Positions 985 to 16,811 of a DNA stretch of 64,000 nucleotides are shown one piece after another (position 1 is the stretch's first letter; each line of letters begins with the position of its first letter). Under the pieces are notes generated by a model. The model had not been told where the DNA came from. It ran no database searches and worked only from the letters and a program-made list of their open reading frames with translations. The stretch comes from Candidatus Latescibacterota bacterium (GTDB lineage Bacteria > Latescibacterota > UBA2968 > GCA-2709665). A program made the position numbers and the translations under genes. The stretch spans positions 3,136,001 through 3,200,000 of the forward strand of contig OZ250150.1 of the NCBI GenBank assembly GCA_965237675.1, given 5' to 3'.

Positions 985-1722
985 CTATTCCACGGGTGTG
1001 AGGTCCTGAATGTCGCGGCGATAGACCCACGTGCCCGTTTTTACGTAGTGGGTCGCAAAGGCCAGCCGGGGTCTGCGATCGGAGCGGTTTGCATAGGATC
1101 CGTGGATGGTTCTACCGGTAAAGAAGACACCGGACCCTCGCGGCACCGTAAGGTAAGTGAGTTCATCCGGGTGGACGTCTGCGACTTCGTGCGAGTGCAT
1201 GGTTTCCGACCATTCCCTTCCGTCAGGGCCGCGCATGGCATAATCCTTCACCCAGGAGGCGTGTTCACTGCTGTCTTTCGGGGGTCGGGTCTTTCGGAGC
1301 GGCGCCAGGTGGCTGCCCGCCGCGACGCAGAGACCGCCGTTGTTTCTGTCGGTGTCGCTCAGCGCGAGCCAGCATGCCATGAGGGTGCCCGGTTCGTTGC
1401 GGATATAGTGAGCGTCCTGGTGCAGCGCGATGCCGGCGCCGCCTCTCGGCGCTTTTGCCATGTACATGGTCTGAACGATCGTCGGGGGCCCGCCCAGCAG
1501 TTGGGCCGCGCTGCCCGCGACGCGAGGGTGCGACGCCAGAAAACGCCACTGCGGGTCCGCGGTGTGCCTGCGCAGGCCGAGTTCCAGGATTTCGGGAGGT
1601 TTCGTGGCAGCCTCGCATTCCAGAAAGGCGTCGATTTCAGGCCGGGTCAATAGATCCGGAACCTGGACGAAACCGTTTGCCCGATACGCCTCCACCTGTT
1701 CGGGTGTCAGGGAAAACCTCAT
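985..1722 (-). CDS. Phytanoyl-CoA dioxygenase (PhyH) family Fe(II)/2-oxoglutarate oxygenase
   Basis: MRFSLTPEQVEAYRANGF start, LHQD (HxD), WLALSD..NGGL, distal IHGS and terminal RLA. Start trimmed from ORF 985..2028. Confidence 0.9.
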   Translation of the reverse strand: MRFSLTPEQVEAYRANGFVQVPDLLTRPEIDAFLECEAATKPPEILELGLRRHTADPQWRFLASHPRVAGSAAQLLGGPPTIVQTMYMAKAPRGGAGIALHQDAHYIRNEPGTLMACWLALSDTDRNNGGLCVAAGSHLAPLRKTRPPKDSSEHASWVKDYAMRGPDGREWSETMHSHEVADVHPDELTYLTVPRGSGVFFTGRTIHGSYANRSDRRPRLAFATHYVKTGTWVYRRDIQDLTPVE

Positions 1723-1735
1723 TGCGGCTTCCGCT

Positions 1736-2680
1736 TCAAGTGAGGTCGAATGGATTGGACCAGGCTTTCGTGCCGTCCGCTCCGAAGACCTCGAAACGGA
1801 CCCGGCGCGCGCCGGGACGCAGGGTGAAGGTGGCCCTCGTAAAGGGTTTCCCGGAATCTCTGTATTCGGTACCGAAGGTGTCGCAAATGGCGAAGATACA
1901 CCGGGATTCGGAGCATTCAACGGTGGCTTCCACCGCCATCCGCTCCCCGTCGGTCTTGCGGAGGCTGATGTTGTGAATTTCAGCGCCCGTGCTCGAATAG
2001 CTCGCACCCTGTTCCAGTGCGTTGACAATGGCCCGCGGGGACCGGTCTCTCACCCGTGCCATCGTCCAGCCCTGGTAAGTGTCCCGGTCATCGGACTCGA
2101 GGGCGTGAGAATCGTCGTTGGCCAGGGCGGGATACAGCCTGTTTCCGAGGTCCATCCAATCGTCCCAATGAACGCCGGATTCGCCCCGTCCCGCGCAGCG
2201 GCAGGTTGTGTTGAACACTTCCACGCCGGCCATTCCCGTAAGGGGCGCGGTGTCACGCAGGATGTTGACCGAGCTCCAGTAAGGGTGGGCCAGCCAGGTG
2301 ACGCCGCCCTGGTCCCGGACGGCGTCGATGACGTGCTGAGGCGGCATGTTCTCCGAGTCGATATCTTCGTGGATGTTCAAGCAGAGAAAATGGTGCTTCT
2401 GGCCGCCGAAGGGGTTGTCGGGATGCAGCTCGGCGCCCTGGATGAGCACAAAGTCATCCGGACAATCCACGGATTCGACCCGGGTGATTCTGCGGTGGTC
2501 CGAAAGGCAAAGGTAGTCGTATCCCTGGTTGACATAACCGTCGAGGCGTTCCTGTGGAGACGCTTTGCCATCGGAATTCGTCGTGTGGGAGTGGAGGTTG
2601 CCTTTCAGCCACACGTAACCGTCTTCGGATTTGAGGGTGAAGGGATTGACCACGTTGTGCCTCGGTGTGTTTTCAGCCAT
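1736..2680 (-). CDS. PHP-domain (CehA/McbA-like) metallohydrolase
   Basis: GNLHSHTTNSDG, LSDH, AHP, and DDSH metal-binding motifs of PHP hydrolases. Confidence 0.85.
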   Translation of the reverse strand: MAENTPRHNVVNPFTLKSEDGYVWLKGNLHSHTTNSDGKASPQERLDGYVNQGYDYLCLSDHRRITRVESVDCPDDFVLIQGAELHPDNPFGGQKHHFLCLNIHEDIDSENMPPQHVIDAVRDQGGVTWLAHPYWSSVNILRDTAPLTGMAGVEVFNTTCRCAGRGESGVHWDDWMDLGNRLYPALANDDSHALESDDRDTYQGWTMARVRDRSPRAIVNALEQGASYSSTGAEIHNISLRKTDGERMAVEATVECSESRCIFAICDTFGTEYRDSGKPFTRATFTLRPGARRVRFEVFGADGTKAWSNPFDLT

Positions 2681-2744
2681 TGAATTTCTCCGGAAAAAAG
2701 CCGAACGATAGGATCGATACCGGCGCGGCGCTTGCGGGATCCTG

Positions 2745-3914
2745 TCAGGGCCTGCCGACAATGGACGGCAGGTTGGTTACGGGGCAGGCTCTCGGCCCCT
2801 TGACGGCATATCCCATGTCTTTTAGGATACAGCTGATCTGCGCTTCAAGCTTGAGCAGATATTCCTTCTCCTCGTTGCTCATGGCCTGGCGTGGCGGGCC
2901 GACGTCGAAACCCCGCACGGCCACGCCGGTTTTAAAGCCTTCCGGGAAGTTCACGCCCAGCAGCATGAGGTTGATGAGATCCAGAATGCGGTATTGCATG
3001 TTGCGTGCGTTTTCGAGATCGCCCGCCAGGGTTTTTTCGTAGATGTCCACGATGACTTCGGGAACGATGCCGGATGTCGCGATCGTGCCGCCGCTGGCGC
3101 CCATCATGATGGAGGGACAGAGGATTTCTTCACAACCCACAAGGACCACGTAGTCCGGGCGCTGTGCGCGAAGCCGGTGCATGGTGTTGATCAGCCGCGG
3201 CATGTCCCGGCTGGAGTCTTTGGTACCCATAATGCGTTCGAACGGCAGCAACCGTTCCATGATGTCCAGCGTGAGTTCCTGCGTGAACTGGGGGATATTG
3301 TAGAGGAGAACGTCGAGAGGCGTCTGTCTGGCGATTTCGGCGAAGTATTCGAAGAGACTCGTGTCGGAAATTTCGTAATAATAGGGGGGTACAAGAGAGA
3401 TGACGTCGACGTCGATGCCGGCGTAGTATTCGCTCATATTGAGCACGTCGCGGAGGTTTGCTTCACTCGCGCCGGCCAGAACCGGCACCCGCCCCTGGTT
3501 GACGTTTGTGACAACGCGCACCACTTCTTTGCGCTCGTCTCTGGACAGGCGCACGAATTCGCCCGTGCTGCCATTGGGATATAACCCGTGGATGCCGGCC
3601 TCGATGAGCCAGTTGACGTAACGCTCCATTTCCCCGTAGTTGATGCGATCGTTGCGGTCGAAGATGACGATGTTGGGACAGAAGATGCCTTTGAATTCCT
3701 TTTTTGCGGCAGGGTTGCGATGCCGGGACGGCACCGAAGTCCGCGAACCGGCGGGCGCGGCGTCTTTCCTTGTCACCTCCACGCGGTTGGCCGCCAGGTA
3801 GTCCAGCGCCAGCGGCGTCAGCTTTGCCCGCGGGCAGATTTCGACCTCACGCTGCGTGCCAAGTTTCTCCTTGAGTAGCTGTTCGGTAACAACCGGATCG
3901 TCAATACGGATCAT
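2745..3914 (-). CDS. DapA/NanA-family class I aldolase with a ~65-aa N-terminal extension (BMC-associated)
   Basis: GLYPNGSTGEF, LYNIP and Schiff-base GTKDSS motifs. N-terminal VVTEQLL..KLTPLALDYL module. Confidence 0.88.
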   Translation of the reverse strand: MIRIDDPVVTEQLLKEKLGTQREVEICPRAKLTPLALDYLAANRVEVTRKDAAPAGSRTSVPSRHRNPAAKKEFKGIFCPNIVIFDRNDRINYGEMERYVNWLIEAGIHGLYPNGSTGEFVRLSRDERKEVVRVVTNVNQGRVPVLAGASEANLRDVLNMSEYYAGIDVDVISLVPPYYYEISDTSLFEYFAEIARQTPLDVLLYNIPQFTQELTLDIMERLLPFERIMGTKDSSRDMPRLINTMHRLRAQRPDYVVLVGCEEILCPSIMMGASGGTIATSGIVPEVIVDIYEKTLAGDLENARNMQYRILDLINLMLLGVNFPEGFKTGVAVRGFDVGPPRQAMSNEEKEYLLKLEAQISCILKDMGYAVKGPRACPVTNLPSIVGRP

Positions 3915-3954
3915 TGATTTCCTCGGGAGCGGGACAGAGACATCCGGCGGCCGG

Positions 3955-5115
3955 TCAGTGAATCAAGCGTTCTTCCAGGGCACGAAAGGGATGGGGGATG
4001 AGATGGGCGGACACCAGTTCTCCATATTTCTCGGCTTCCGTGGCGCCGACTCTCAGCGCCGTGCGCACCGCGCCGACGTCTCCCCGGACAACGCTTGCAG
4101 TGAGAAAGTAACCCACCTTGTACCGTCCCTCGTATTCCACGTCTGCGGATTTCAGCATCTGATCCACCGCCTTGACCAGGGCGACGGTGCTGCGCGTTTC
4201 GATCAGCCCCATCGCCTGATTCCGGCTCACGGGTCTCCTGGCGTCGCCGCAGCCAAAACAGGCCAGAATTTCGGACGATGGACGGGAAACGACGCAGGAT
4301 GCATTCAGTTCCCCGGCCTCCCGGGCGCCGTCGACGCCGGCATGGACGGCCGCCTGAACCGCGTCCAGGGTGCCCTTGACGAGCGCGTCTACTCGACCTC
4401 CGCTGGCGATTACGAGGCGCACGAGGTCCACGTCGACCGCTTTGACCATCGCGTCGCAACCGCCGACTGCGGACGCATAACCCGTCGTTTCCAGTATGCC
4501 CAGCGCGCCGACGTCGGTCTCGGGCGCGTTCGTTATCGGTGTGAAGGGAAGCAGGAGAGCGACGCCCGCTTCGGGGCTCGGAATGTCCAGGGCGGCGAAA
4601 ACTTCTCCAACCTCACTCGCACACGCTTTGCCGGCCTGCACCGCGGTCCGGACCGACGATATATCGCCCCTTACCACAAGATGAACCAGAGCGCCGCCGA
4701 TGGATGTCCAGCCGGCAACCTGGACGGGCGCGCTTTTGATCATGGCGTCCGCGCCGCGGATGAGGGGTACCATGCCGCGGGTTTCCAGAATCCCCAACGC
4801 CAGGGGTCCGACGGGCCTTGTCGAGGGTGCGGCCATCCTGTGTGGCATGGGTTCCAGGGCGCGTACATCAGGACCCGGGATGACATCGGCGGTAACCAGT
4901 TCGCCGTGGTTTTCGGCCTCGGTTCTCCCTATTCGGACCGCGGCCTCTACATCCGAAACGGCGCCTTCAACGACGACGGTTACCCAACCGGAACCGACGC
5001 CGTGTCGTCCGAGAACCCTCACGTCCACGGTCTTCAGCATGGCGTCCAGGGCCGCGATGAGCGCGGCCATGCCGCGGGTTTCCAGAATCCCCATGGCATG
5101 ATTTCGTGCGTTCAC
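3955..5115 (-). CDS. Bacterial microcompartment shell protein with four tandem BMC domains
   Basis: Four repeats of A[ML]G[IL][LI]ET..D.M.K...V...G.v..V..A (AMGILETRG/DAMLKT, ALGILETRG/DAMIKS, ALGILETTG/DAMVKA, AMGLIETRS/DQMLKS), each ~95 aa. Confidence 0.92.
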   Translation of the reverse strand: MNARNHAMGILETRGMAALIAALDAMLKTVDVRVLGRHGVGSGWVTVVVEGAVSDVEAAVRIGRTEAENHGELVTADVIPGPDVRALEPMPHRMAAPSTRPVGPLALGILETRGMVPLIRGADAMIKSAPVQVAGWTSIGGALVHLVVRGDISSVRTAVQAGKACASEVGEVFAALDIPSPEAGVALLLPFTPITNAPETDVGALGILETTGYASAVGGCDAMVKAVDVDLVRLVIASGGRVDALVKGTLDAVQAAVHAGVDGAREAGELNASCVVSRPSSEILACFGCGDARRPVSRNQAMGLIETRSTVALVKAVDQMLKSADVEYEGRYKVGYFLTASVVRGDVGAVRTALRVGATEAEKYGELVSAHLIPHPFRALEERLIH

Positions 5116-5124
5116 GGCAGCCGC

Positions 5125-5682
5125 TCAGGGGCCGAATGCCCGGAGGACTTCGGGCAAGGGTTGAGGGATCAGTGCGTCACAGAGGAAGTTTTCCCCGGAT
5201 TCAACGCACGCGCGACCGACGGGCAGGGCTTCGCTCACGGAGGCCACGTCCCCCAGAATAAGGGAGCAGACCACCCGGTTGTGCACGGTGAGCACGTTAT
5301 AGACCCGGACGTCGGCGGCCTTGACCATGCGGTCGTTGGCGGTGACGTGCACGCCGTATCCCCTGGTTTCGATCAGACCCAATGCGCCGGACGGTGTACG
5401 CCGTTCCGGGGCGCCGGGAATCGAGACGTATTCCCGGCAAACGGGTTCGGGTTGTGTCATCGGCGCCGCTACCACGTGGCTCACGACCTCTCTGGCCGCC
5501 TTTTCGCCGCTCTTCAGCGCCGTTGCGACTCTGCTTATGGATCCACCCAAGAAAACGGTGGTGAATCCGCCGATGGATTCCCAACCCAAAAGGTCCACGC
5601 CGGCGGTTTTACAGGCGGCATCCGACGCGAGAATAATGCCGGCGACGCCTTCGACTTCGATCATGCCGATTGCGGCTGACAT
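5125..5682 (-). CDS. Bacterial microcompartment shell protein with two tandem BMC domains
   Basis: AIGMIEVEG/DAACKTA and ALGLIETRG/DRMVKAADV repeats; 185 aa. Confidence 0.92.
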   Translation of the reverse strand: MSAAIGMIEVEGVAGIILASDAACKTAGVDLLGWESIGGFTTVFLGGSISRVATALKSGEKAAREVVSHVVAAPMTQPEPVCREYVSIPGAPERRTPSGALGLIETRGYGVHVTANDRMVKAADVRVYNVLTVHNRVVCSLILGDVASVSEALPVGRACVESGENFLCDALIPQPLPEVLRAFGP

Positions 5683-5738
5683 GCTTCCGTCCAGGTGTCG
5701 TTATGTCGTACGGTTTGGTCGATATCACTCAACCCGAA

Positions 5739-5767
5739 AAAATAGATACGGGCCGAACCAAAGTCAA
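5739..5767 (-). promoter_or_regulatory. Putative sigma70 promoter of the BMC operon
   Basis: Minus strand TTGACT-17 nt-TATTTT, ~55 nt upstream of the 5682 start. Confidence 0.5.
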
Positions 5768-6056: not shown

Positions 6057-8477
6057 TTAGAACAGCAGTACCGAGACCGCTTTCTGGATCATGGCAATGG
6101 AGACGGAGGCCATGCCCACCAGGGACATGCCCACCGAAAACCCGACGTATAGCACCGCGGCATAGAGGCGCCACTGCTGTTTGCCGAAGCGTTTCCAGAA
6201 ATAGAACCGCGCCAGGAGTGCGCCGATGATTTCGGTGATGAGGAGGTGCGGAATGCTGGTCAGGCTCCGTATGTACCCGAAAATGAGCAGTATCGGCAGG
6301 CCGAAGACGGACAGAACCACGAACGAGACCAGGCCGGCGGCGAGTCCGATGAAGATAACCTCTTTCTTGAGGGCCTCGAACAGGATCGGCACGTCGTCCG
6401 AACTCTGAAGGAACGAACCATCGAAGGAGGGTACCTGATCCACTTCGAACTGGTACACCAGTTCCCGCCCCTGAGGGTCCCGGGCTTCGAGAACGACCAG
6501 GTTGGGGTTGGGGTTGTCCGCGTGGCTTTCGTCTGACGGACTTCGCAACACGGGCGCCGAAGGCAGCCCATATAGAAGGGCATCGGAAATGTCCGGTTCC
6601 GCGCGGTCCACCGGGAGCGGTGGCGTGAGCGGACGTTCGAAATCGTTGAAGTTCGTATAAAAGTACCCGACCCGGGACCATGGTCCGTAGGCGCGTTGTT
6701 CGTGATCTTCAATGTCGACGTTGGCCGAGGCGCGTGCGCGCCAGTACCACCAGCTGCCGTCGGGCAGATTGCTGGGCTGGAAGGACACCGTTCCGGAGGA
6801 CACATCCGTTTCCACTTCGCCCTGCATGGTGCCGGTGTACCAGACGCTGCTCTGCAGCGCCCGAAGCGGCCACATCAGCTGTACGTACGGGTAGGCGGCC
6901 GAGGGAATGGGCGCCAGCTTCCAGATGTAGGACCAGTACATGAAGCTGGTAATAAAAATGAGGGGAACCATGAAAATCTCGGCTTTCACGATCCCCGTAA
7001 ATTTCGTGCCCGTGAGTTCGATCTGCCGGAAACGCTCGGCTTCCGCCCCCCAGTTTGCCAGCGGGAAGGGCACAAACCAGATTTCGATGCCCTTGAACCC
7101 GCTCAGAAAGATGGTGGCTTCCTTGATATACGGGATATTGACGTTCTGTCCGACCAGGCCGTCGAGCCGGGCGTTGACAAAGGAGATCAGCGGGGTGTAG
7201 ACAAAAGCGAAGATGAAAAAGAAGGTGAGCAGAACTTTTCCAACCAGGGCGGGAAAGAGAATCTTGGCCAGGATGATGGTGTACATGCTGGCAAGACAGA
7301 AAAGCACGATGCAGATCCAGATACGGAAGTCGCCCCGTCCGGGCGGCGGGGTCCAGCTTCCCGTTTCTTTCTTTTCCAGACGGGCGGTGCGAACCCCGGT
7401 CCAGACCTGGTAGAACCCGATAATTGCGATGGCAACGGTGATGCCGATGCCGAAGCTCATCCAGAAGTCGATGCCGGTGACAAAGTGGGTCATGATGGTA
7501 TCCATGCCCATGAACCAGTGGGGCATGTAACCGTGCCGGTACAGAATGGGGCTGGCCACGGTGTGGATGACGACGCCGATGAACGCGCCCATAACGGCCC
7601 AGAAGGGGGCCAGGAGCCCGGCGAAGATGGGCGCCAGGTGGAGCGTGAATCCCAGCGGCGTGGCCTCCAGGAAATAACCCGTGTACTGGGTGAAATCCAC
7701 CCATGGAATGGGGATGAGTTGAAGCGGATTTTCCATAAACGCGCCGGTAATGGCGGGCACGGCCACGTAAATGGCCCCCCATACCACACCGATGACGGCG
7801 CCGATACTGAAGACGCGCCACTTCCATGTGTATTGCCCGCTGCTCTCTTCCGCAAGCGCCATGGCGGCCTGGGCGTTGATGGGGGCGAACGGAAAGGGCA
7901 GGCGTTCGTAGTCCGAGGTAATGCGGAAGAGCACGTAACTGGCGGTGAACCACTGGATGCGGACCATGATTGTCCCCAGGACGAGCAGGGAGATGGGCAG
8001 GAGCCAGTCCGCGTGGAGAAAGGTGCGGTCGATCAGGGCGGGGGAGTCGGGCGGGGGCGCCCACCAGCGGGGGATGAGGTGCGAGATGCCGAACTGTTTG
8101 GCGGCGGGTGACTGAACATAGTACTGGTGCCAGAGCAGGCCCTCGAATGCGCCGGTTTCGCGGGCAACCAGGGCGCTGGTGACATAAAAGAGAAGATAGA
8201 GTTCCTGCTTTTTCAGCACGGTGAACGAGCGCTTGGCCAGTTCCAGAAACAGGATGATGGTCACCCACTGGGCAGCGGCGCCCACGGTTTGACCCACCAT
8301 AAGTTCCAGGTAGATGTTCCCCGGAACCATAATAATGGAGACGAAGAGCGCGCCGAGAACGGTCTTGGAGTTGAAGCCCTCTTCGAATTCCTTGGGGACT
8401 TCAAGCAGATCCCGGTATTCTTCGATTTCCTCGTACGGATTGGTTTTGCGCCTGCGAAAGAGGTTCGATAACGCCAT
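6057..8477 (-). CDS. OPT-like multipass membrane transporter with an inserted soluble Fn3/Ig-like domain
   Basis: Many hydrophobic helices, YERLPFP motif, and a hydrophilic ~140-aa insert (6400-6820). Start at MALSNLF (8477) inferred. Confidence 0.75.
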   Translation of the reverse strand: MALSNLFRRRKTNPYEEIEEYRDLLEVPKEFEEGFNSKTVLGALFVSIIMVPGNIYLELMVGQTVGAAAQWVTIILFLELAKRSFTVLKKQELYLLFYVTSALVARETGAFEGLLWHQYYVQSPAAKQFGISHLIPRWWAPPPDSPALIDRTFLHADWLLPISLLVLGTIMVRIQWFTASYVLFRITSDYERLPFPFAPINAQAAMALAEESSGQYTWKWRVFSIGAVIGVVWGAIYVAVPAITGAFMENPLQLIPIPWVDFTQYTGYFLEATPLGFTLHLAPIFAGLLAPFWAVMGAFIGVVIHTVASPILYRHGYMPHWFMGMDTIMTHFVTGIDFWMSFGIGITVAIAIIGFYQVWTGVRTARLEKKETGSWTPPPGRGDFRIWICIVLFCLASMYTIILAKILFPALVGKVLLTFFFIFAFVYTPLISFVNARLDGLVGQNVNIPYIKEATIFLSGFKGIEIWFVPFPLANWGAEAERFRQIELTGTKFTGIVKAEIFMVPLIFITSFMYWSYIWKLAPIPSAAYPYVQLMWPLRALQSSVWYTGTMQGEVETDVSSGTVSFQPSNLPDGSWWYWRARASANVDIEDHEQRAYGPWSRVGYFYTNFNDFERPLTPPLPVDRAEPDISDALLYGLPSAPVLRSPSDESHADNPNPNLVVLEARDPQGRELVYQFEVDQVPSFDGSFLQSSDDVPILFEALKKEVIFIGLAAGLVSFVVLSVFGLPILLIFGYIRSLTSIPHLLITEIIGALLARFYFWKRFGKQQWRLYAAVLYVGFSVGMSLVGMASVSIAMIQKAVSVLLF

Positions 8478-8513
8478 AGAACTCAATCGAGATTTGAGGG
8501 TTGACGGGCCGAA

Positions 8514-8541
8514 ATTATACACACAATGGCCCGATTTGCAA
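8514..8541 (-). promoter_or_regulatory. Putative sigma70 promoter of the OPT-like gene
   Basis: Minus strand TTGCAA-16 nt-TATAAT, ~37 nt upstream of the ATG. Confidence 0.45.
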
Positions 8542-8604
8542 AGAGAATTTCAGATTTGTGCATTCGGAAGACCCGAATACGCGCGATACACGGCGGGTCT
8601 TTTT

Positions 8605-11600
8605 TTATACGGGTTTCGCCGCTTGTTCGCCGGAGGCCAGTATCCGCATGCCTTTTTCGCGGTAAGCGGCTTTGTCGGCGGGACCGACGGTACGCCATAT
8701 GAGGAACTGTTTGCGCAGGGTGTTTATGAATCCCTGGTTGACCCGGCGCCACGACGCGACTTCACCGGAGAGGCGCCTGAGAGAGAGCGTCAGGGTGTAG
8801 ATGTTGAATTCGCCGGTGGGTTCCGCCTCGAAACGAAGCTCCTGGTTCACACCCAGATCGAAGGGCGCCAGCCAGAGGGTTGTTTGGATGGCGTACCCCT
8901 CCGGGTCGTCCGCGCTTCCGATCCGGTATAAGTGGGCCCCGTCCGTGTAAAATGCCCCTATGGCTTCGCCAGTGTGGGATCGGAAGTAGTCTGCGAGAAA
9001 GACGCAGAGCCCGAACACGTCATTGCCGCCAACCGTAAAGGGGAATTCGAACCGCCAGTCGTCGCCGTCCGGCTCGGGGATTTTCCACCGACGGGACACG
9101 TCCGGCACGGCCATCAGGGAAGCCTGGCGCGCCGGATAGACGGTGGACAGGATCACAACGGCCATAACCAGTACCGACGCGGCAACCGCGGACCGGGCGG
9201 AGTAGTTCAGCGTGACGCCGGAGAGCCAGTCCTGCCACAGCAGCAGTTTGGCAACGCCCTGACCCATCAGGTAGCCGCTCACCGTGCCGAGGACCGCGTA
9301 GACGCACGCTTCGGCAATAAAAAGAAAGGCAACGTGGACCGGAGCCAGGCCCACCGCCGAATAGACGCCGATTTCACGGAAACGTTCGTAAACCGATCCC
9401 ATCATGGTGTTCAGCACGATGAGGGAGGCGATGAGGATGGGGATAAAGAGGTTGCTCAACCCGCGGACCGAGGTGTCTCCGAGCGAACTGAAGACGGCAA
9501 CGTTGATACGCCCGTCCGCGTCCGGCAATCCCGCAAAGAGCACAACCGAGAGCCTGGAAAGGAGCTCCTTGACATAGAACTCCACGTCTGCCCCGGCATC
9601 AAAGCGCAGCGCAACCGATTGCAGCGGGCTGCCCACCTGGCGCAGGAACTTGTAGGGTACAATCAGGATATCGTCAGGGTTGATGTGTTCAAAGGGCATG
9701 ATTTCAACTTCCGGTTGTTCGAGGCCCTGTTTTTCCCGTGTCTCCTGGGTGGTCATCCGGGCGATGGATTCCTCGTCGGTGAGCTTGAAGTCCGCGGGAC
9801 TGAGGGGTTCCTCATCCAGGTCTTTGAGCCGATTGAACGCCTTGGCGTCGATCAGGCCGATAACCGGAAGCGATTCGCCGAAAATCCGGATGCGGGACGC
9901 CGCCAGGCGCCCCGGGTCGACACCGAGGAGGTCCGCCATCTTTTCGGGCAAGATGCAGGCGGTCTCGCCCGGACGGAACCAACGGCCGGTCTTCAGGGTG
10001 CGGTGGACGCCGGTAACGTCAGCCTCCTGGGGCGTCATTCCCAGGACGCCAAGAGCGTGGGTCGAGCGGGTTTCAGACTGGACGGGGATAATCTTCTTCT
10101 CCCGTGTGTAGTACCAACTCCGGGGGGCCGTTATGGCGGATTCCCCGAAATGGGTGACGGCGTAATCGTAAACGACGTCTTCGAGCGCGCCCCAGAATTT
10201 GCTGCGGATGAGCATACCCGGATAGGCGCCCTCGGTGTCTTTTGGAATCCGGTAATATTCAAGGGCCGATTTCATGGAGGTGAACGAGAGAACGGTGAAG
10301 GTGAGCAGCAGCAGTGTGGTAAACGTAAGCACGGTGCGCAGTTTGCGCCGTTTCATGTTCGCGATGCCAAGCTGGAAGGCCGCCATGGACGCGGATACTC
10401 GGCCGACGTCGGTTTCGTGCAGAAGCACTTCCGGGACCCGTAACCGCCGCATGTTTTCGTTGAAGCGCTTGAAGACCAGCGCAATGACGAATGCCGCCAG
10501 CGCCAGAATAACGAAGGCGAGCAGGACGACCATCGGATTGGAGATCTCGAATGCCGGATGAACTCTTGAAAGAAAGAGCCAGATGACCAAAAAGATGCCC
10601 GTAAATCCGACGATCTGTCTTCGGATATCCACGGCGGCGAAAATAAGGCGTTCGGCGAAAAATGCGCATGGGATAACCAGGGCCATGAAGAAAACGATAC
10701 CGCGGACCACACCGTTCTGTGTGTCTTTGACATCCGGATAGGCGCGGGATTCGATGCCGAGCGCCGCCCGCGTGTGTTTCATAAAGTCATCCCAGCGTTT
10801 TGCGGACATCGCGTCCTCAGCCAATTTGAGGTGTTGGCCGGCCTGGCTGTGGAGCAGGTCCAGGCGCTGGTTTTCAATGGCGTATTTCTTCATCTCCCGT
10901 ATACGGGCTTCGTTCAGGATCCACATGTCCCGCGCGGCCCGAAAGGACGTCCGTACAAACGAACCGTGGGTGAAGGTGGGGTACCCGCGGCCACGGGCAA
11001 TTTCCTCACTTTCCGCGCTGTGAGCGTTCAGCAACAGGTACCGGATGCCAATGTCGCCTGAGCCTGCGGTGATGTCGCCCGCGCGCATGGCGATTTTGAC
11101 CCTCTCGCCGGGTTGCGTGAACAGGGTGCCTACGGGTTCTGTCGGACCGAATCCGATGGCGTAACCGTATTCCTGCGGCGTGACGTTGCCGCTTCCGTAA
11201 ACGCTGATCTGCGAGAGTTTGGTGAGGTAACGTGGATCGACGGTATCGTAAAAGTCTGTGGCGACGCAGGGGAATAAAATGAGATTTCGCTTGGAGATCC
11301 ACCAGTCCATATCGAAGTTACCCCGGTAGATACGCGCCTGCTGTCCAAAGTTGGGGGCGTAAGTGATTTCGCCGGTGTCCGGATCCAGGTAGTACGCGCT
11401 GACGGAGACACGGCGTTCGGCGATCCCGGGCATGTAGAATTCGCCGTTTTCGTCCGCCAGGTCGTAATAGATGCGGCGAACGCCCTTGATGGACTTGTCG
11501 ATGCCCATACGCAGCGCGGCGATCGCGCCCTTTTTGGGACGGTCGGGTACGATGCTGCGCCTCGGATAGGTTCGCACGAATCCCTTAAGCCCGCGCATAC

Positions 11601-13140
11601 GGTCGTCCGGGTTGAGTCGGTAGTCCGGGATGAGCGTGGGGTCGTTCAGGGCAATGTCGAGAACGCCGGTGATCAGTCGAATCTGCCTGGTGAGGTTCTC
11701 AAAGTTGACCCGATCCGGCTGGTCCAGCGGCGTATCGACGCGAAAACGGGCGTCGTTCAAGGTGACCAGAGACAGGGAGAGGGTGCCGGCTTCGAGAACC
11801 ACTTCGCCGTCGGTTTTCAGGTTTTTGCCGGGCATGTACATGTCCCAGGTCATTCCGCCCGTGGGATTGATGCCGTCAAGCAGCGCCTGCCTGGGGTCGA
11901 GCCCGAAGCCGGGCGCGATGGCTTTGGAGATCCTGACGAATTTCTTGCCGAACGGCGTGAAGAACCGGTTGTAATAAAAGTTGCGCGTGCTGTTCCAGAC
12001 GCCGATCTGGGAGGTCTGGCTGGAGAGGTCCAGTCCAATGAAGAGCCGAATGTCGATGGGATCTGTCATCAGGGCCGCAAAGTGTCGTTCCTTCCTGGCG
12101 TGACGGCCCAGAAAATCGCAGATTCCGCGAAAGCCCAGGTGGTGGGCGGAAGTGGCCAGAAAGAGCACCGTACGCCCCGTCGGATATCGATGAAAGTAGT
12201 TGACCAATTCAAGCAGTGCGACGGCGCCGCTGGCCATCTCAGCGCCCGGGGCGAGGGCGGGCACAACGGACATGGCGTCGTAGTACGCGTTGATCACGAC
12301 GATCTGGTCCCGGAGATCCGGATCCGTGCCCGGCAGAAAGCCCAGAATATTGTGGGCGGTGTGGTTCTCCCAATCCATTTTCGCGTTCAGTTCGATTTCC
12401 AGTTCGCCGTACCGTGCCAGCAACCGTTTGAGGGCCTGCCCCGACTGTTTGTCGATCCAGAAGCGTTCCACGCTGTTTGGCACCTGCAGGAATTTCTGTT
12501 CGGCTTCGGTGTAAAACGTGGAGTCCGGTTCAATGAAGATAATTTGTCCCGCCCCGAGGGTGGCCGCGTTGAGCCAGTTGTTCCGGGTGTTGAATTCCAT
12601 CAGGACGGCCGCCGCCTCAAGTGTGTGACCGTTGAAGTCGGAAAATTCGCCGTTCGCCCCGTAGATCAGGCGCGTGCGAACCCCTCCCCGCGGCAGGGTG
12701 GAGGTCTTGACCAGGTTCGGCCAGATGGCGTGAATGGCAAACGTGGTATTGTCGCGCAACAGGGTCAGACTACCGCCCTTGTCGATGGGGGCGGTGACGT
12801 CGAAGGGCTCGGCGCGGACGTCCTGGAGGCCGGCGCGCTCGAAAGTTTGGCGGATATAGTCTGCGGCGGCGTTGTGGCCGGGATATCCCGGAATTCGGGA
12901 ACCATGTTCCGTAAAGCGGGCCATGTGGGCCCGCACGCCTTCATGCGAGACCGTATCCAGGACGCGGACCGATGTCTCGCCGGCTCCCGGGACCGGCAAG
13001 GACGGCGAGGGTTGGGGCGTCTGCAGGCCCAACAGGGAGGAAAGAAGCGGGTTGACGCGTTCCGGGCCCACCGCCAGGCCGATAAAGGCGGCGGCGGTGA
13101 GCAAGAGCGCCACGGCGGATGCGATACGGCGGTTTTTCAT
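8605..13140 (-). CDS. Very large FtsX/MacB-like ABC permease with an N-terminal M28-peptidase-like extracytoplasmic domain
   Basis: N-terminal signal/TM, HGSRIPGYPG, HNILGFLPG..VVINAYYD..APGA (M28-like fold), NMKRRKLRTVLT and GSVYERFREIGVYSAVG..FIAEA (FtsX signature). Start MKNRR inferred. Confidence 0.8.
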   Translation of the reverse strand: MKNRRIASAVALLLTAAAFIGLAVGPERVNPLLSSLLGLQTPQPSPSLPVPGAGETSVRVLDTVSHEGVRAHMARFTEHGSRIPGYPGHNAAADYIRQTFERAGLQDVRAEPFDVTAPIDKGGSLTLLRDNTTFAIHAIWPNLVKTSTLPRGGVRTRLIYGANGEFSDFNGHTLEAAAVLMEFNTRNNWLNAATLGAGQIIFIEPDSTFYTEAEQKFLQVPNSVERFWIDKQSGQALKRLLARYGELEIELNAKMDWENHTAHNILGFLPGTDPDLRDQIVVINAYYDAMSVVPALAPGAEMASGAVALLELVNYFHRYPTGRTVLFLATSAHHLGFRGICDFLGRHARKERHFAALMTDPIDIRLFIGLDLSSQTSQIGVWNSTRNFYYNRFFTPFGKKFVRISKAIAPGFGLDPRQALLDGINPTGGMTWDMYMPGKNLKTDGEVVLEAGTLSLSLVTLNDARFRVDTPLDQPDRVNFENLTRQIRLITGVLDIALNDPTLIPDYRLNPDDRMRGLKGFVRTYPRRSIVPDRPKKGAIAALRMGIDKSIKGVRRIYYDLADENGEFYMPGIAERRVSVSAYYLDPDTGEITYAPNFGQQARIYRGNFDMDWWISKRNLILFPCVATDFYDTVDPRYLTKLSQISVYGSGNVTPQEYGYAIGFGPTEPVGTLFTQPGERVKIAMRAGDITAGSGDIGIRYLLLNAHSAESEEIARGRGYPTFTHGSFVRTSFRAARDMWILNEARIREMKKYAIENQRLDLLHSQAGQHLKLAEDAMSAKRWDDFMKHTRAALGIESRAYPDVKDTQNGVVRGIVFFMALVIPCAFFAERLIFAAVDIRRQIVGFTGIFLVIWLFLSRVHPAFEISNPMVVLLAFVILALAAFVIALVFKRFNENMRRLRVPEVLLHETDVGRVSASMAAFQLGIANMKRRKLRTVLTFTTLLLLTFTVLSFTSMKSALEYYRIPKDTEGAYPGMLIRSKFWGALEDVVYDYAVTHFGESAITAPRSWYYTREKKIIPVQSETRSTHALGVLGMTPQEADVTGVHRTLKTGRWFRPGETACILPEKMADLLGVDPGRLAASRIRIFGESLPVIGLIDAKAFNRLKDLDEEPLSPADFKLTDEESIARMTTQETREKQGLEQPEVEIMPFEHINPDDILIVPYKFLRQVGSPLQSVALRFDAGADVEFYVKELLSRLSVVLFAGLPDADGRINVAVFSSLGDTSVRGLSNLFIPILIASLIVLNTMMGSVYERFREIGVYSAVGLAPVHVAFLFIAEACVYAVLGTVSGYLMGQGVAKLLLWQDWLSGVTLNYSARSAVAASVLVMAVVILSTVYPARQASLMAVPDVSRRWKIPEPDGDDWRFEFPFTVGGNDVFGLCVFLADYFRSHTGEAIGAFYTDGAHLYRIGSADDPEGYAIQTTLWLAPFDLGVNQELRFEAEPTGEFNIYTLTLSLRRLSGEVASWRRVNQGFINTLRKQFLIWRTVGPADKAAYREKGMRILASGEQAAKPV

Positions 13141-13245
13141 TGGAAAATACGCAAAAGCTCCTGTAGAACTGCGATTGATGGGCTGTGCTGCCACATAGAT
13201 ACACGCTGCGGGCGCCGTTCGGCGAAGACCTCGCGTGCGTGCAGA

Positions 13246-15252
13246 TCAATATCGATGAACGCTGTGGCCGCGCTCCGGGAACCACAGGATGTCAATGAAA
13301 GCGGAGAGGGCAACGCCCAACACATAGCCGGTGAGCAGGCCGATGAAGAGGGGGCGGGACTTTCTGAAAAACGAAGGCCCCCCCACCTTGAGCATCACCA
13401 ATTTGACGAGCCAGGCAAGAAGGATGGTCAAGCCGGTCCGGCGGGCGAGGTACGATCCGGAGATTGCCATACCGATCGGATGCAGCGGCCACCAGACGAA
13501 TCGATGCCGCAGGTAAATGAGCAGGAGCGTGACCAGGCCGCCCAGGCCGAAAAACACCACCTGTTCAGGGTGTTCGCGGTAAACGGGCGGATCCGGCTTT
13601 TTTTCGAGGAAGTTCTTGATGGAAGTCGCGGTGCCTTCGAAATGTTTGGGTCCCGCACGTACGATCTCCCATGAGTTGAAGTTGTACGCACCGTCTCGGT
13701 ATCCCAGATGGATCGTGAGCAGTACGCTGACGCCATAGCTGGTCAAAAAGGCCATCCCGACGGCCAGCATGAGCTTTCTGCGGTCGCCCCGAACGCCCTC
13801 AGCCACGCGCCCCGCGTGGGCAAGCGCCGGCAGGAAGAGACCCTTGAAATGGGACGTAATCCTGGACGCGAACCGGAGGGCGACCCGCGTACTTGCGTTG
13901 ACCGCGGGTCCCTCGAGAAAGGGCGCCACGAGGCCCCAGGGGCCGGCGGGGACGTTCGTGTACGGCATGCCGGTTTCGGCGAGAATTTTAGCCATGCCGA
14001 CGTAGGTGAAGATCACAGCCGGGAGGAGGAGGGATGCCAGCAGCGGATCAAAGCCGATGCGCGTGAGCCAGAGCCACATGTATCCCAGGCCCACGAGCAG
14101 GGCGATAACAGCCGTCCGATAGGAGAGCGGTTCGTCCCGGTCGTCCAGGGGATCGTTCTTGCGCCATGCTTTGCGGACCACATCCCTAATGTGACGTCTG
14201 GCAACCCAGAAAACCGAGGCGGCCAGCACAACAAATGCGCCCTTGGTCTGCCAGTAATAGACGCCTCGGTAATAGTAGGGGGAAATGGCCGTAAACCCTC
14301 GCCGGTGCAGCCAGCCGCCTTCGAAGATAAACAGCAGGTCAAAAAACCAGATGCTGAAGAGTATGTCCAGGCTGGCGAAGTAAGAAAAAAAGATGGTGAA
14401 GAGTCCCAGGAAACGAAACACTGGCGGATGCTGCCGGTCGATCCAGTACCAACTCCCGCGGTAGATGGGAAACCGCGGAAAGCCGGGCAGGAAGTAGTTG
14501 ATGCAGTTCCACGCGATCATCCCGAAGGCCAGTCCGAACCCGATCCAGAACAGGTAATTCCTGGTGAAGTCCGGCAGCACGAATTTACCTCTGCCCGGAT
14601 TCTCCACCATGTTGACCAGGGGCGCCATGGCGGGAAAAGCCAGCCGCTCGTTTTGTACCCATTGTTTGCGAAAAACGACGGCGACACACGCCAGAACCAC
14701 GAATGCGGCAACGATGAACGTGGTCCACCACAGCAGCGGAAGGACCCACGCGGCCCAGGGGATCTGCGCGCCCCTGGGGATGCCCTCGAAAAACCAGGTC
14801 ACCGCTTTGTTTTCGTCCGAAGGGACGAGCCACGGATTGATATAAGGATGCAGGTACGTGGCCCATTCGTTGACTTCGGTGGCGAAATAATATGGTGCCG
14901 CGATGTAACCGATCAGGTATCCGCTGATGCCGAAGCCGGGTATGGCGGCGCCCACAACGCCCATGGCCAGGATGGTATGCCATTCCGATTGTGAGAGCTG
15001 CCATCGGGTAAAACGTGCGATCAACGCGCCGATGACGATCATCAGTACAAACACAATGAGCATGGCCATCGGTACATGGCTGTAGGTCATTAACGAGCCG
15101 CCCACGACGTACCGGATGTGGATCGCCAGGGCGTCCAGGCCGACGACCAGCACCAGGCCCGAAATGACGGATCGGACCGTGACGCCGGGGGACCTTTCGG
15201 AGGGGACTTCGTCCGGTTTGCCGGATTGTACGATTCTCTGTGGGTTGGCCAT
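13246..15252 (-). CDS. Uncharacterised multipass membrane protein (DUF6785/DUF6784-like, OPT-related)
   Basis: Mostly hydrophobic helices, KQWVQNERLAFP, WWPLHPIG and RKSRPLFIGL motifs recalled from this family. Confidence 0.75.
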   Translation of the reverse strand: MANPQRIVQSGKPDEVPSERSPGVTVRSVISGLVLVVGLDALAIHIRYVVGGSLMTYSHVPMAMLIVFVLMIVIGALIARFTRWQLSQSEWHTILAMGVVGAAIPGFGISGYLIGYIAAPYYFATEVNEWATYLHPYINPWLVPSDENKAVTWFFEGIPRGAQIPWAAWVLPLLWWTTFIVAAFVVLACVAVVFRKQWVQNERLAFPAMAPLVNMVENPGRGKFVLPDFTRNYLFWIGFGLAFGMIAWNCINYFLPGFPRFPIYRGSWYWIDRQHPPVFRFLGLFTIFFSYFASLDILFSIWFFDLLFIFEGGWLHRRGFTAISPYYYRGVYYWQTKGAFVVLAASVFWVARRHIRDVVRKAWRKNDPLDDRDEPLSYRTAVIALLVGLGYMWLWLTRIGFDPLLASLLLPAVIFTYVGMAKILAETGMPYTNVPAGPWGLVAPFLEGPAVNASTRVALRFASRITSHFKGLFLPALAHAGRVAEGVRGDRRKLMLAVGMAFLTSYGVSVLLTIHLGYRDGAYNFNSWEIVRAGPKHFEGTATSIKNFLEKKPDPPVYREHPEQVVFFGLGGLVTLLLIYLRHRFVWWPLHPIGMAISGSYLARRTGLTILLAWLVKLVMLKVGGPSFFRKSRPLFIGLLTGYVLGVALSAFIDILWFPERGHSVHRY

Positions 15253-15428
15253 CGTTGGGAGTTGGGTGTTGACAGATTGGGCGTTTTTTCCGGTATGAGG
15301 CGTTCAGGCCGGGTGTTCCGCCTGGTTTCTGCGCGAGAATACTGTCACGGTTGAGGCGTTAACGTGTGTTTGCTCTGTCTCCCGGGATTGTCAAGACGGC
15401 CGGACCGTAGAAAACGGTTGCAAGTGTC

Positions 15429-15457
15429 TTGACATCCGTGGGAGGTTTTGTTAGATT
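15429..15457 (+). promoter_or_regulatory. Sigma70 promoter of tRNA-Phe
   Basis: TTGACA-17 nt-TAGATT. Confidence 0.7.
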
Positions 15458-15504
15458 TCCGCGTTTGTCGCACAACGGGAACGTTGCGTTTTCCCGGCGA
15501 ATGG

Positions 15505-15580
<76 letters not shown>

Positions 15581-15712
15581 ATCTTTCGTGCAGGAATATC
15601 CGGACAACCTTCCATCTGCCCTTGCAACAAGGGGCTGATGGGAGCCGCTAACGATGCCGCGGGTCGCCAGTTTTATCCGGGGGACGAAGCAATTTCCCGG
15701 GCTCGGAGGTCA

Positions 15713-15895
15713 ATGATGGCTGTTCCCGAACACATCGTGAGTCGCGACCGCCTGATTGAATGCGTTCAAGACGGCCGGACACCCGAACAAATTGCGGCGA
15801 TGTTCCGCGTCGACGCCGCCATCATTCGAGATATGATCCGTCGACTCGAGCAGAACGGATATTACGACTTGCTATATGGAAAAGAAGGGCGTTAG
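15713..15895 (+). CDS. Small helix-turn-helix protein (~60 aa)
   Basis: GGAGGT RBS; TPEQIAAMFRVDAAIIRDMIRRLEQNG is HTH-like; followed by a terminator. Confidence 0.6.
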   Translation: MMAVPEHIVSRDRLIECVQDGRTPEQIAAMFRVDAAIIRDMIRRLEQNGYYDLLYGKEGR

Positions 15896-15967
15896 AGGCC
15901 GGCCGTCAACCGGTTTTCGGGATGACTCCCGAACAGAGGCAGGACTGGCTTCCAGGACCCGGTGAAC

Positions 15968-16009
15968 AAGAAAAGGCGTTCGTCGTTCTGACGGACGCCT
16001 TTTTTCTTT
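15968..16009. terminator. Bidirectional rho-independent terminator
   Basis: AAAAGGCGTTCGTC-gttct-GACGGACGCCTTTTTT between convergent genes. Confidence 0.8.
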
Positions 16010-16022
16010 GTGGTGTTGCGTA

Positions 16023-16811
16023 TCAGTTGCTCAGTTCTTCGATATCCAGGCCTTCGATTCTTCCTTCCTGAATGTCGATTTCGTCGCGCCTCCGCACCAG
16101 ATCCACCTGTCCGTCGCGCAGGTCCACAACGCGGTCGGATGCGTCCAGCATCTTGTGGTCGTGCGTGTTTGTGACGATGGTGACGCCACTCTCCGACTGG
16201 AGTCTTTGCAGCAACTCGATGATTTCCTGACCGGTCTTGAGGTCCAGGTTGCCCGTGGGTTCATCTGCCAGAACCAGGTCCGGGTCGTTGGCGATCGCGC
16301 GGGCGATTGCCACGCGCTGCTGCTGGCCACCCGAGAGTTCATACGGGTTGTGGTGAAGGCGTTCACCCAGACCCACGAGTGAGAGTTTGTGGGCGGCCTT
16401 TTTCTCGTATTCCAATTTCTTCATTCCCGAAAACACCATGGGCAACGCGACGTTTTCGAGGGCGGTCATTACGGGGATCAGGTTGAAGCTCTGGAAAATG
16501 TATCCGATATTGTGGCAGCGCAGGTACGCAATTTGCGCCTGGCTCAAGGTATCCATTTCTATAGCGTTGACCGCTACCGTGCCCTTGGTGGGGCGGTCCA
16601 GGGCGCCAACCATATTGAACAGCGTCGTCTTACCGGAGCCTGAGGGGCCCATGATGGAGAGGTACTCTCCCCGGATGACATTCAGAGAGACGCCCCGAAG
16701 TGCATGGACCTCCTGGTCTCCCATTATATAGGTCTTCCAGACGTCGTGCACCTCAATGATGTAGTCTTCACTTACGGGATCTGTGGATTGGGCACCGGGC
16801 GCAGAGGCCAT
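16023..16811 (-). CDS. ABC transporter ATP-binding protein (LolD/MacB type)
   Basis: GPSGSGKT Walker [15 protein letters not shown] signature, [11 protein letters not shown]-loop THD. Confidence 0.95.

Follow-up and report, generated by a model that had tools for sequence, protein, structure and literature searches.

Adjacent four-domain and two-domain shell protein genes in a Latescibacterota genome, and their probable pairing in an asymmetric microcompartment tile

The stretch of DNA analyzed here (the window) comprises 64,000 nucleotides from Candidatus Latescibacterota bacterium (assembly GCA_965237675.1, contig OZ250150.1, positions 3,136,001 to 3,200,000 of the forward strand) and has a G+C content of 59%. 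Two neighboring genes on its minus strand encode shell proteins of a bacterial microcompartment (BMC), one with two BMC domains (gene B) and, directly downstream, one with four (gene A), followed in turn by an aldolase gene that is taken up further on. Nine nucleotides separate the TGA stop codon of B from the start of A, and a second in-frame start in A, an ATG, lies seven codons past the GTG. We will argue that the two products probably share a single hexagonal shell tile. The genes and their six domains are as follows.

5125-5682, minus strand: gene B, two-domain BMC shell protein of 185 amino acids, ATG start, two PF00936 domains
5467-5673, minus strand: domain B1, PF00936 match at G000:C1:3141467-3141673, pore loop GW-x-SIGG
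5158-5385, minus strand: domain B2, PF00936 match at 3141158-3141385, pore loop VLTVH-(N/D)-RVVC
3955-5115, minus strand: gene A, four-domain BMC shell protein of 386 amino acids, GTG start, four PF00936 domains
4870-5097, minus strand: domain A1, pore loop GRHG-x-GSGW, in contact with B2 in the complex model
4573-4800, minus strand: domain A2, pore loop GW-x-x-IGGAL
4279-4506, minus strand: domain A3, pore loop R-L-x-I-x-SGGR
3988-4215, minus strand: domain A4, pore loop G-x-YKVGY-x-L, in contact with B1 in the complex model

A sequence-only reading of this DNA had described four and two BMC domains encoded 9 nt apart, and a scan with the Pfam hidden Markov model (HMM) PF00936 bears this out: A has four matching stretches (E 8.9e-77, 253.5 bits) and B has two (E 1.4e-31, 108.7 bits), so that both exceed the gathering score (24.5 bits) and belong to the BMC-domain family. 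Matches of A and B to the CcmO, EutM, CsoS1 and PduT models of NCBIfam all fell below threshold. The same reading held the four domains to be non-permuted. The best-scoring stretches are colinear with PF00936, over profile positions 1-75 of 75 in A and 1-72 of 75 in B, and the AlphaFold2 (AF2) model of A alone (pLDDT 89.2, pTM 0.87) has, by DSSP, the canonical b-a-b-b-a-b-(a) order in all four domains. Profile and model together indicate that the four domains of A are not permuted, while for B the canonical order rests on the colinearity of its best-scoring stretch, which is one domain. The three linkers between the domains of A are each about 12-14 residues long, and that of B is of equal length.

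No sequence in the PDB that matches A is longer than 213 amino acids, and all the chains retrieved by a fold search with the A model have one or two domains. The top PDB match is the synthetic tandem BMC-H fusion 6NER (sequence E 7e-35; TM-score 0.89-0.92, normalized to the target). PduT aligns to A3-A4, and a Desulfitobacterium tandem protein to A2-A3.

The edge lysine of the D-x-x-x-K motif makes lateral contacts between tiles, and it was said to be kept in all six domains. We read it in each of them (D24/K28, D123/K127, D221/K225 and D318/K322 in A; D21/K25 and D117/K121 in B), and it is invariant in both family alignments (31 sequences for A; 32 for B, the latter with a mean column identity of 71%) and at least 90% conserved over 72 unique A/B pairs. 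The six differing pore-loop strings quoted earlier (GVGSG, SIGGA, IASGG, KVGYF, SIGGF and TVHNR) are likewise all present as written. The B1 loop is one residue shorter than the other five, and the B2 loop would place histidine, asparagine or aspartate, and arginine at the pore. A PduT-like iron-sulfur site was considered and dropped, as C139 of B is the only one of the family-conserved cysteines near a pore loop.

We also inspected the edge segments of the six domains (window 3955-5682, minus strand). Standard hexamers carry a C-terminal edge motif, PRPH, and this motif has diverged in most of the six domains, so the six edges of an A/B tile may be non-equivalent. Within the window the edge arginine is kept only in A3; A1 has an arginine in many relatives. 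For reference, a standard tandem protein encoded at a related locus (L043) has PRPH in both of its domains, and the hexamer adjoining it has PRP without the histidine.

To see how the pair is distributed, we searched 5.8 billion clustered proteins and found 284 relatives of A; the best 120 of these are 366-424 amino acids long and 52-100% identical. These 120 come from metagenome-assembled genomes (MAGs) labelled Latescibacterota or Gemmatimonadota, on contigs of up to 7 Mb, and the database names are "BMC domain-containing protein" or "CcmO" only. We then took 168 species genomes of the window's phylum as a sample for phylogenetic profiling. About half of them (82) have both A and B, 84 have neither, none has A only and two have B only; in both of the latter (85% and 76% complete) B lies at the very edge of a contig, so that A would be lost. 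Carriers of A include 13 of the 14 genomes of the window's genus and 64 of the 76 of a second family. These counts cover genomes related to one another and are to be read as a pattern rather than as a statistical test. The A/B pair is confined to a single uncultured phylum, and within it the pair is old, conserved and present in one copy per genome.

Adjacency was followed in both directions. A forward scan with the A alignment yielded 64 loci, in which the BMC domains of each open reading frame (ORF) were counted with an HMM built from the six window domains. An intact four-domain ORF is present in 59 of the 64, and in all 59 a two-domain ORF lies directly upstream; of the other five loci, four are cut inside A by the contig end and one (L068) has A split 3+1. 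A reverse scan with the B alignment yielded 79 loci, 77 of them B orthologues (at least 51% identity) and two unrelated BMC proteins (33% and 28% identity). Downstream of the 77 orthologues we find a complete A in 70, the split A in one and the contig end in six, and none of the 77 is followed by a different gene. The genome and adjacency surveys that the sequence-only reading had proposed thus come out in its favor, the four-domain gene never occurring without its two-domain partner.

The partner might have been any tandem shell protein. Relatives at about 55% identity carry a standard 186-amino-acid tandem protein and an 87-amino-acid hexamer about 700 nt upstream of the pair; in L043, the one copy examined, these two carry the pore and edge motifs that we take as canonical. 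The window genome has neither of them, yet retains B: its only PF00936 matches are two single-domain BMC-H genes at the main microcompartment locus and the six A/B domains. Because the window genome keeps B without the standard tandem protein, the constant companion of A is B specifically. At another locus (L060:4943-5500) we noted an additional 185-amino-acid two-domain BMC gene, between PduL and a small cysteine-rich protein described below; this locus also has B, A, the hexamer and the standard tandem protein.

We considered the possibility that gene A is an artefact, either a misassembly or a gene-calling fusion of two tandem shell genes. No support for this was found, the only break inside A being that in L068. 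The same four-domain frame is single-copy and free of internal stops in each of the 82 carrier genomes, many of which were assembled as one or two contigs; the architecture was found in more than 70 independently assembled loci, complete chromosomes included; and DNA contigs of another run (X3) cover the locus piecewise at 99% identity or better, none of them spanning the whole of gene A. Recurrence in independent assemblies and strong purifying selection domain by domain exclude the misassembly against which the earlier reading had warned, and we regard this explanation as refuted, with practically no chance of being correct. In L068 itself (3258-4431, on the same contig as L111), a TGA in the A3-A4 linker splits A, and 4 nt past it, in another frame, an ATG coincides with the conserved methionine at the head of domain 4. 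Either the 2+3+1 partition is natural or the MAG contains a one-base error.

The spacing of the two genes points to coupled expression. Between the stop of B and the start of A, 58 loci have a distance of -14 to +12 nt and one (L061) a spacer of about 100 nt; the commonest arrangement is an 8-nt overlap with a GTG start. This is the usual picture of translational coupling, and B and A are probably coupled. In two metatranscriptome runs labelled sponge metagenome we found RNA contigs from a relative about 90% identical, the shell genes and aldolase matching at about 90-95%. A 1309-nt contig (run X19) covers 4403-5703 and so takes in the whole of B, the junction and 237 codons of A from its start, and a 438-nt contig (run X20) covers 4977-5413, bridging the B-A junction; other RNA contigs match the aldolase (3197-3795). 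Parts of the stretch have no RNA-library cover (3867-4070 in X19, for example), which is not evidence either way, and the depths given are per contig and are no measure of expression. These contigs hint that B and A are expressed together, and that the relatives live in sponges and express the module.

If A and B occupy fixed places in one tile, each of the six domains should have its own history. A tree of 174 domains, from 20 loci and the window, was made in a quick IQ-TREE run on few columns. It has one clade for each of the six positions, with supports of 99 (A1), 64 (A2), 97 (A3), 99 (A4), 100 (B1) and 99 (B2), and the domains of the standard tandem protein and the hexamer form clades of their own. 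Over the 72 unique pairs, the residues conserved to at least 90% in the pore loops are GW-x-SIGG in B1, VLTVH-x-RVVC in B2, GRHG-x-GSGW in A1, GW-x-x-x-GGAL in A2, SGGR in A3 and YKVGY in A4, and these domain-specific residues are kept at that level though whole-protein identity drops to about 50%. Because of the six clades and the position-specific conservation of the pore loops, the six positions appear to have been fixed before the family radiated, each under its own constraint. Separate constraint at each position would be predicted by a fixed-position tile, and any fixed architecture predicts likewise. An origin of the six domains by triplication of a tandem gene finds no support, as this quick tree of few columns has no odd-odd and even-even grouping.

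We folded a 1:1 A:B complex with both family alignments, in three runs and with three controls in which an unrelated protein replaced the partner (two controls) or chain 1 (one control). The complex score was 0.79, 0.79 and 0.68 in the three runs and 0.00 in all three controls. For comparison, 58 of 80 solved complexes reach the mark used for this score, as do 2 of 110 mismatched pairs; these counts are a rough guide, as our own alignments were used here. At least 97% of the contacts agree between runs, and the pLDDT of the partner is at least 88. On A the interface residues are confined to A1 (8-92) and A4 (308-365), and on B they fall in B1 (7-87) and B2 (107-138 and 185), the lowest-error pairs being A1-B2 and A4-B1. 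The two junctions are alike, each setting the strand-1/pore-loop/strand-4 face of one domain against the helix-1/strand-2 face of the next. As both ends of A touch B (A1 to B2 and A4 to B1), the modelled ring is closed; it is of one handedness, and its order, B1-B2-A1-A2-A3-A4, is also that of the genes. The 1:1 modelling that had been proposed as a check therefore returned a six-domain ring with both ends of A on the partner.

Strict co-occurrence, adjacency and the ring-closing model thus support the proposal, made from the sequence, that A and B form a 1:1, fully asymmetric tile, with physical assembly inferred from the model. We think it probable, on a fair balance of these lines, that they make up a heterodimeric six-domain pseudohexamer. 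The strongest competitor would have the two proteins build two separate tiles, B as a homotrimeric tandem pseudohexamer and A as its own homo-oligomer, for example three chains in two stacked or neighboring rings. B does have the standard two-domain architecture of trimeric tandem shell proteins, three copies of A would supply 12 domains, enough for two rings, and operon linkage by itself is no proof of binding; for the permuted BMC-T(dp) class, the microcompartment catalogue PMC8217296 describes double discs that are stacked. On the other side, in the complex model A1 and A4 rest, with high confidence, against the two domains of B; the short equal linkers, the AF2 model, confident overall (pTM 0.87), and the placement of both ends of A on B suggest that the domains of A form one arc; A is never without B among the carrier genomes; B persists as the sole two-domain protein of the window genome; and each of the six domain positions is a distinct orthologous group. 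We consider separate tiles unlikely, though worth keeping in mind.

A further alternative is that A spans two adjacent tiles, its domains divided 2+2 or 3+1 between them and the remaining positions taken by B, so that A would cross-link tiles covalently. A linker could cross a tile boundary, given that the C-terminus of a BMC domain presumably lies near the tile periphery, and the 3+1 split of A in one relative suggests that the chain boundary is not fixed. Both the AF2 monomer model (pTM 0.87) and the complex model are in-ring, however, and the three linkers of A are equally short, with none that stands out as a tether between tiles. Stitching of this kind seems to us distinctly improbable.

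Several observations weigh against the heterodimeric tile itself, or blunt the evidence for it. Co-occurrence and operon linkage are equally expected of two separate tiles of one organelle. The pass of the complex model may reflect likeness to the abundant solved BMC hexamers and trimers, and, since the controls were unrelated proteins, the model indicates that a two-domain unit fits the gap and not that B does so specifically. We found no fused six-domain "Rosetta stone" protein: there are no relatives of A of 677-2000 amino acids, and among the best 120 of the 284 none exceeds 424, which is weak evidence. Covariation between the chains (mutual information with average product correction over the 72 unique pairs, phylogeny uncontrolled) is weak. 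Three of the 20 top inter-chain pairs fall in the modelled interface lists, against a background of 1.6%; one of the three is not a modelled contact, and the enrichment is lost by the top 200 pairs (4 of 200, with phylogeny again uncontrolled). The RNA contigs cannot prove a single transcript, as DNA may occur in RNA libraries. Lastly, the domain tree groups A3 with B2 and A4 with the single-domain hexamer, which gives no simple origin for the set.

The gene that follows A suggests what such a tile might serve. Two features belong to it.

2745-3914, minus strand: class I aldolase of the DHDPS/NAL family, 389 amino acids, PF00701, 40 nt downstream of A
3765-3914, minus strand: N-terminal extension of the aldolase, about 50 amino acids, a small b-a-b-a-b domain

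The PF00701 (TIM-barrel) match of the aldolase begins at residue 74 (E 1.9e-56), and no NCBIfam equivalog matched it at cut-off. Its nearest solved relatives are YagE (a 2-keto-3-deoxygalactonate aldolase), KDG aldolases, sialic acid lyases and DapA. In 28 orthologues GSTGE (115-119) and Y205 are invariant and K232 nearly so; we take these to be the catalytic residues, K232 presumably being the Schiff-base lysine. The aldolase follows A in 60 of the 64 loci, the exceptions being L040, L055, L066 and L074 (the last a 3.1-kb contig), and it is 70-95% identical across loci, better conserved than the shell proteins. Nearly all of its best 120 database relatives have the same extended length. It is the likely cargo or signature enzyme of the module.

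The N-terminal domain is modelled with a pLDDT of about 83 over residues 1-50. Across 41 sequences five of its residues are invariant, including the T-P in its T-P-x-A-x-D motif. The domain has no match in Pfam even at E of 1 or less, its model has none in the PDB by Foldseek at E of 0.001 or less, and a tblastn search of the window genome found no second copy. That it targets the enzyme to the shell is a pure inference on our part. A side observation concerns the same domain: in L043 (5545-5991), and at the same position in 36 other loci, a small protein of 135-183 amino acids is encoded directly upstream of B. It consists of an N-terminal homologue of the aldolase extension, a stretch with eight cysteines and a C-terminal amphipathic helix like an encapsulation peptide; against NCBIfam one such small protein matched TIGR02536 weakly (E 2.3e-4, 20.9 bits, cut-off 152.6). 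This small cysteine-rich protein is present in the relatives at about 55% identity and absent from the window genome.

The window genome also encodes a microcompartment elsewhere. Its main locus (G000:C1:2841-12385), 3.1 Mb from the B-A-aldolase set, contains genes for a phosphotransacylase (PTAC), a BMC-H hexamer, a BMC-P pentamer, an aldehyde dehydrogenase (AldDh), two further BMC-P, a class II aldolase, acetate kinase and a second BMC-H. The pentamers (PF03319), three in number, and the cargo enzymes are thus encoded in the main locus, where the hexagonal tiles are single-domain hexamers only. With its class II aldolase (PF00596), acylating AldDh, PTAC and BMC-P triplet, this locus is PVM-like, a type name that we take from PMC8217296 and whose description there it matches. 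The B-A-aldolase set is a satellite module in the window genome. In the relatives at about 55% identity the set instead lies beside the standard tandem shell gene and hexamer gene, and in L043, the one such locus annotated, AldDh and PduL adjoin as well.

Taken together, these data suggest the following scheme. B and A would be co-transcribed and probably translationally coupled, and their products would pair 1:1 into one hexagonal tile with the ring order given above, which would insert into the facets of the host metabolosome, here the PVM-like microcompartment. Because each of the six ring positions would be a separate, independently evolving domain, the central pore would have no symmetry. 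Taking the PduA pore motif as our assumed reference for alignment, we would assign to the pore lining serine (A1), glycine (A2), glycine (A3), tyrosine or phenylalanine (A4), glycine (B1) and histidine, asparagine or aspartate, and arginine (B2), such that the conserved arginine and histidine of B2 and the tyrosine of A4 would face a glycine-lined side formed by A1-A3. The aldolase would split a 2-keto-3-deoxy sugar acid into pyruvate and an aldehyde, and the AldDh of the compartment would consume the aldehyde. The tile could then be a dedicated conduit, and perhaps a docking site, for the substrate or products of the co-encoded aldolase, possibly a port for its anionic substrate or for pyruvate. 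The six conserved and differing loops and the co-encoded aldolase are what suggest a pore tailored to a specific substrate, and our confidence in this account of pore and cargo is lower than in the heterodimeric tile.

The same pore residues allow a different function, in which the tile acts as a closed plug or provides the aldolase with an internal scaffold, and is not a selective conduit. The bulky tyrosine or phenylalanine of A4 and the histidine and arginine side chains of B2 could block the pore, and most of the six domains lack the canonical PRPH edge motif. Nevertheless, all six domains keep the edge lysine, as lateral tiling would lead one to expect, and with glycine at three of the six positions around the pore there is space for an opening. 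We would give a plug or scaffold very little weight.

It is useful to set the proposed tile against the known shell proteins. It resembles the BMC-T(s) proteins (PduT and CcmO type), in which short linkers likewise join canonical domains head to tail and each tile also comprises six of them. BMC-T(s) tiles, however, have two domains per chain, three identical chains and a three-fold pore, whereas A and B would pair 1:1 and asymmetrically, with six different pore loops and six different edges; B taken alone has the two domains per chain of that class, and A has four. The BMC-T(dp) proteins (stacked double trimers of the CsoS1D and CcmP type, with a cryptic N-terminal domain) are circularly permuted, which the domains checked here, canonical and colinear with PF00936, are not; the NCBIfam CcmP model matches B at E 1.8e-4 and 21 bits, far under its cut-off of 340. 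The synthetic fusion 6NER, the top PDB match of A, is similar in that linked canonical domains can tile a shell, and differs in being engineered, with two identical domains in trimers. Heterohexamers of CcmK3 and CcmK4 in beta-carboxysomes are of variable stoichiometry and mix single-domain paralogues, unlike an A/B tile, whose composition and ring order would be covalently fixed at 4+2. They share with A/B a tile made by more than one gene, a proposed role in permeability tuning and a satellite locus, as discussed in PMC8217296. According to the same catalogue, satellite "EUT modules" (an EutL-type protein with EutABC) likewise place a shell protein beside a signature enzyme away from the main locus, and their proposed role is to extend an existing compartment to a further substrate, for which the shell protein would be the entry port; they differ from the B-A-aldolase set in having a shell protein of the permuted-trimer class and another enzyme family.

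The sections of PMC8217296 considered here distinguish six types of shell protein, all of them with at most two PF00936 domains, and its methods state that "problematic sequences" were pruned from the alignments. A literature search of main texts turned up no paper that deals with a shell protein of three, four or six BMC domains. The four-domain protein and the 4+2 building block are thus new relative to the described shell proteins that we found, although the Supplementary Data of that catalogue (locus diagrams and shell trees) may show these genes under other labels.

We also surveyed multi-domain relatives with our own 6-sequence HMM in a library clustered at 50% identity. Among the best 150 representatives one has four domains (P0095, a member of the present family), 21 have three, 72 have two and 56 have one. 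Fourteen of the 21 three-domain matches have three full domains, and the rest include fragments of the A family. These 14 proteins, of 286-330 amino acids, come from MAGs labelled Calescamantes, Atribacteria and Dehalococcoidia (L153:4001-4867; also P0133, P0135-P0141, P0143, P0147, P0154, P0161, P0171 and P0180). Searching with a single three-domain protein gave three loci, the alignment of all 14 being too diverse, and at the one locus examined there is no other BMC gene within 4 kb. They resemble A and B in departing from the one- or two-domain rule with a number that still divides six; they differ in that a homodimer (3+3) would suffice, and they come from unrelated lineages. A 3+3 dimeric pseudohexamer would fit these three-domain proteins.

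Current descriptions of shells build each hexagonal tile from six identical single-domain or three identical two-domain chains, and a natural 4+2 tile would break the rule of six- or three-fold pore symmetry. In an asymmetric tile the six pore walls would be separately tunable and the six edges could differ, which bears on the open problem of how larger or charged metabolites pass selectively through shells, and would offer engineers a natural scaffold with six individually addressable positions. The finding would also define, for an uncultured phylum, a previously unrecognized cargo module: an aldolase of the DHDPS family that carries a new N-terminal domain. Carried to its furthest, the proposal is that this is the first natural tile without internal symmetry, an obligate 4+2 heterodimer in a portable module whose aldolase is recruited by a 50-amino-acid domain; we put this forward tentatively and with some doubt. 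If it is true, six pore loops and six edges are separate genetic positions, and a one-sided, chemically specific pore could evolve, with a face of histidine, arginine and tyrosine opposite a glycine face. A fixed orientation of the tile in its facet would become possible. The module would be a portable set of three parts, in which the tile travels with its own aldehyde-producing aldolase and the enzyme is brought to the tile by a new targeting domain rather than by the usual amphipathic helix. Along with the three-domain proteins, it would mean that any number of domains per chain is allowed so long as the ring sums to six.

Two further features of the window adjoin the set.

5739-5767, minus strand: promoter-like site TTGACT-17-TATTTT, about 57 nt upstream of B, weak
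1736-2761, minus strand: metallohydrolase of the CehA/McbA family (PHP-type), its start overlapping the aldolase stop by 17 nt

The promoter-like site comes from a scan for consensus promoters that returned three sites where 1.4 are expected. Because of the 17-nt overlap, the metallohydrolase is probably in the same operon as the aldolase in close relatives, and a homologous ORF is found at the same position in L012. The region downstream of the aldolase (985-2761, minus strand) contains a dioxygenase gene of the PhyH family as well; the longest ORFs of the two genes overlap by about 290 nt, so one of the starts must be miscalled. Upstream of B (6057-16811, minus strand) lie genes for an 821-amino-acid protein, a 1529-amino-acid protein with an FtsX-like permease domain, a DUF6785/DUF6784 protein and an ABC ATPase. 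The 821-amino-acid protein has no match in Pfam or NCBIfam, and homologues of it are at the same position in L012 and L024, judging from ORF starts. These upstream genes may encode a transporter linked to the module, in close relatives only.

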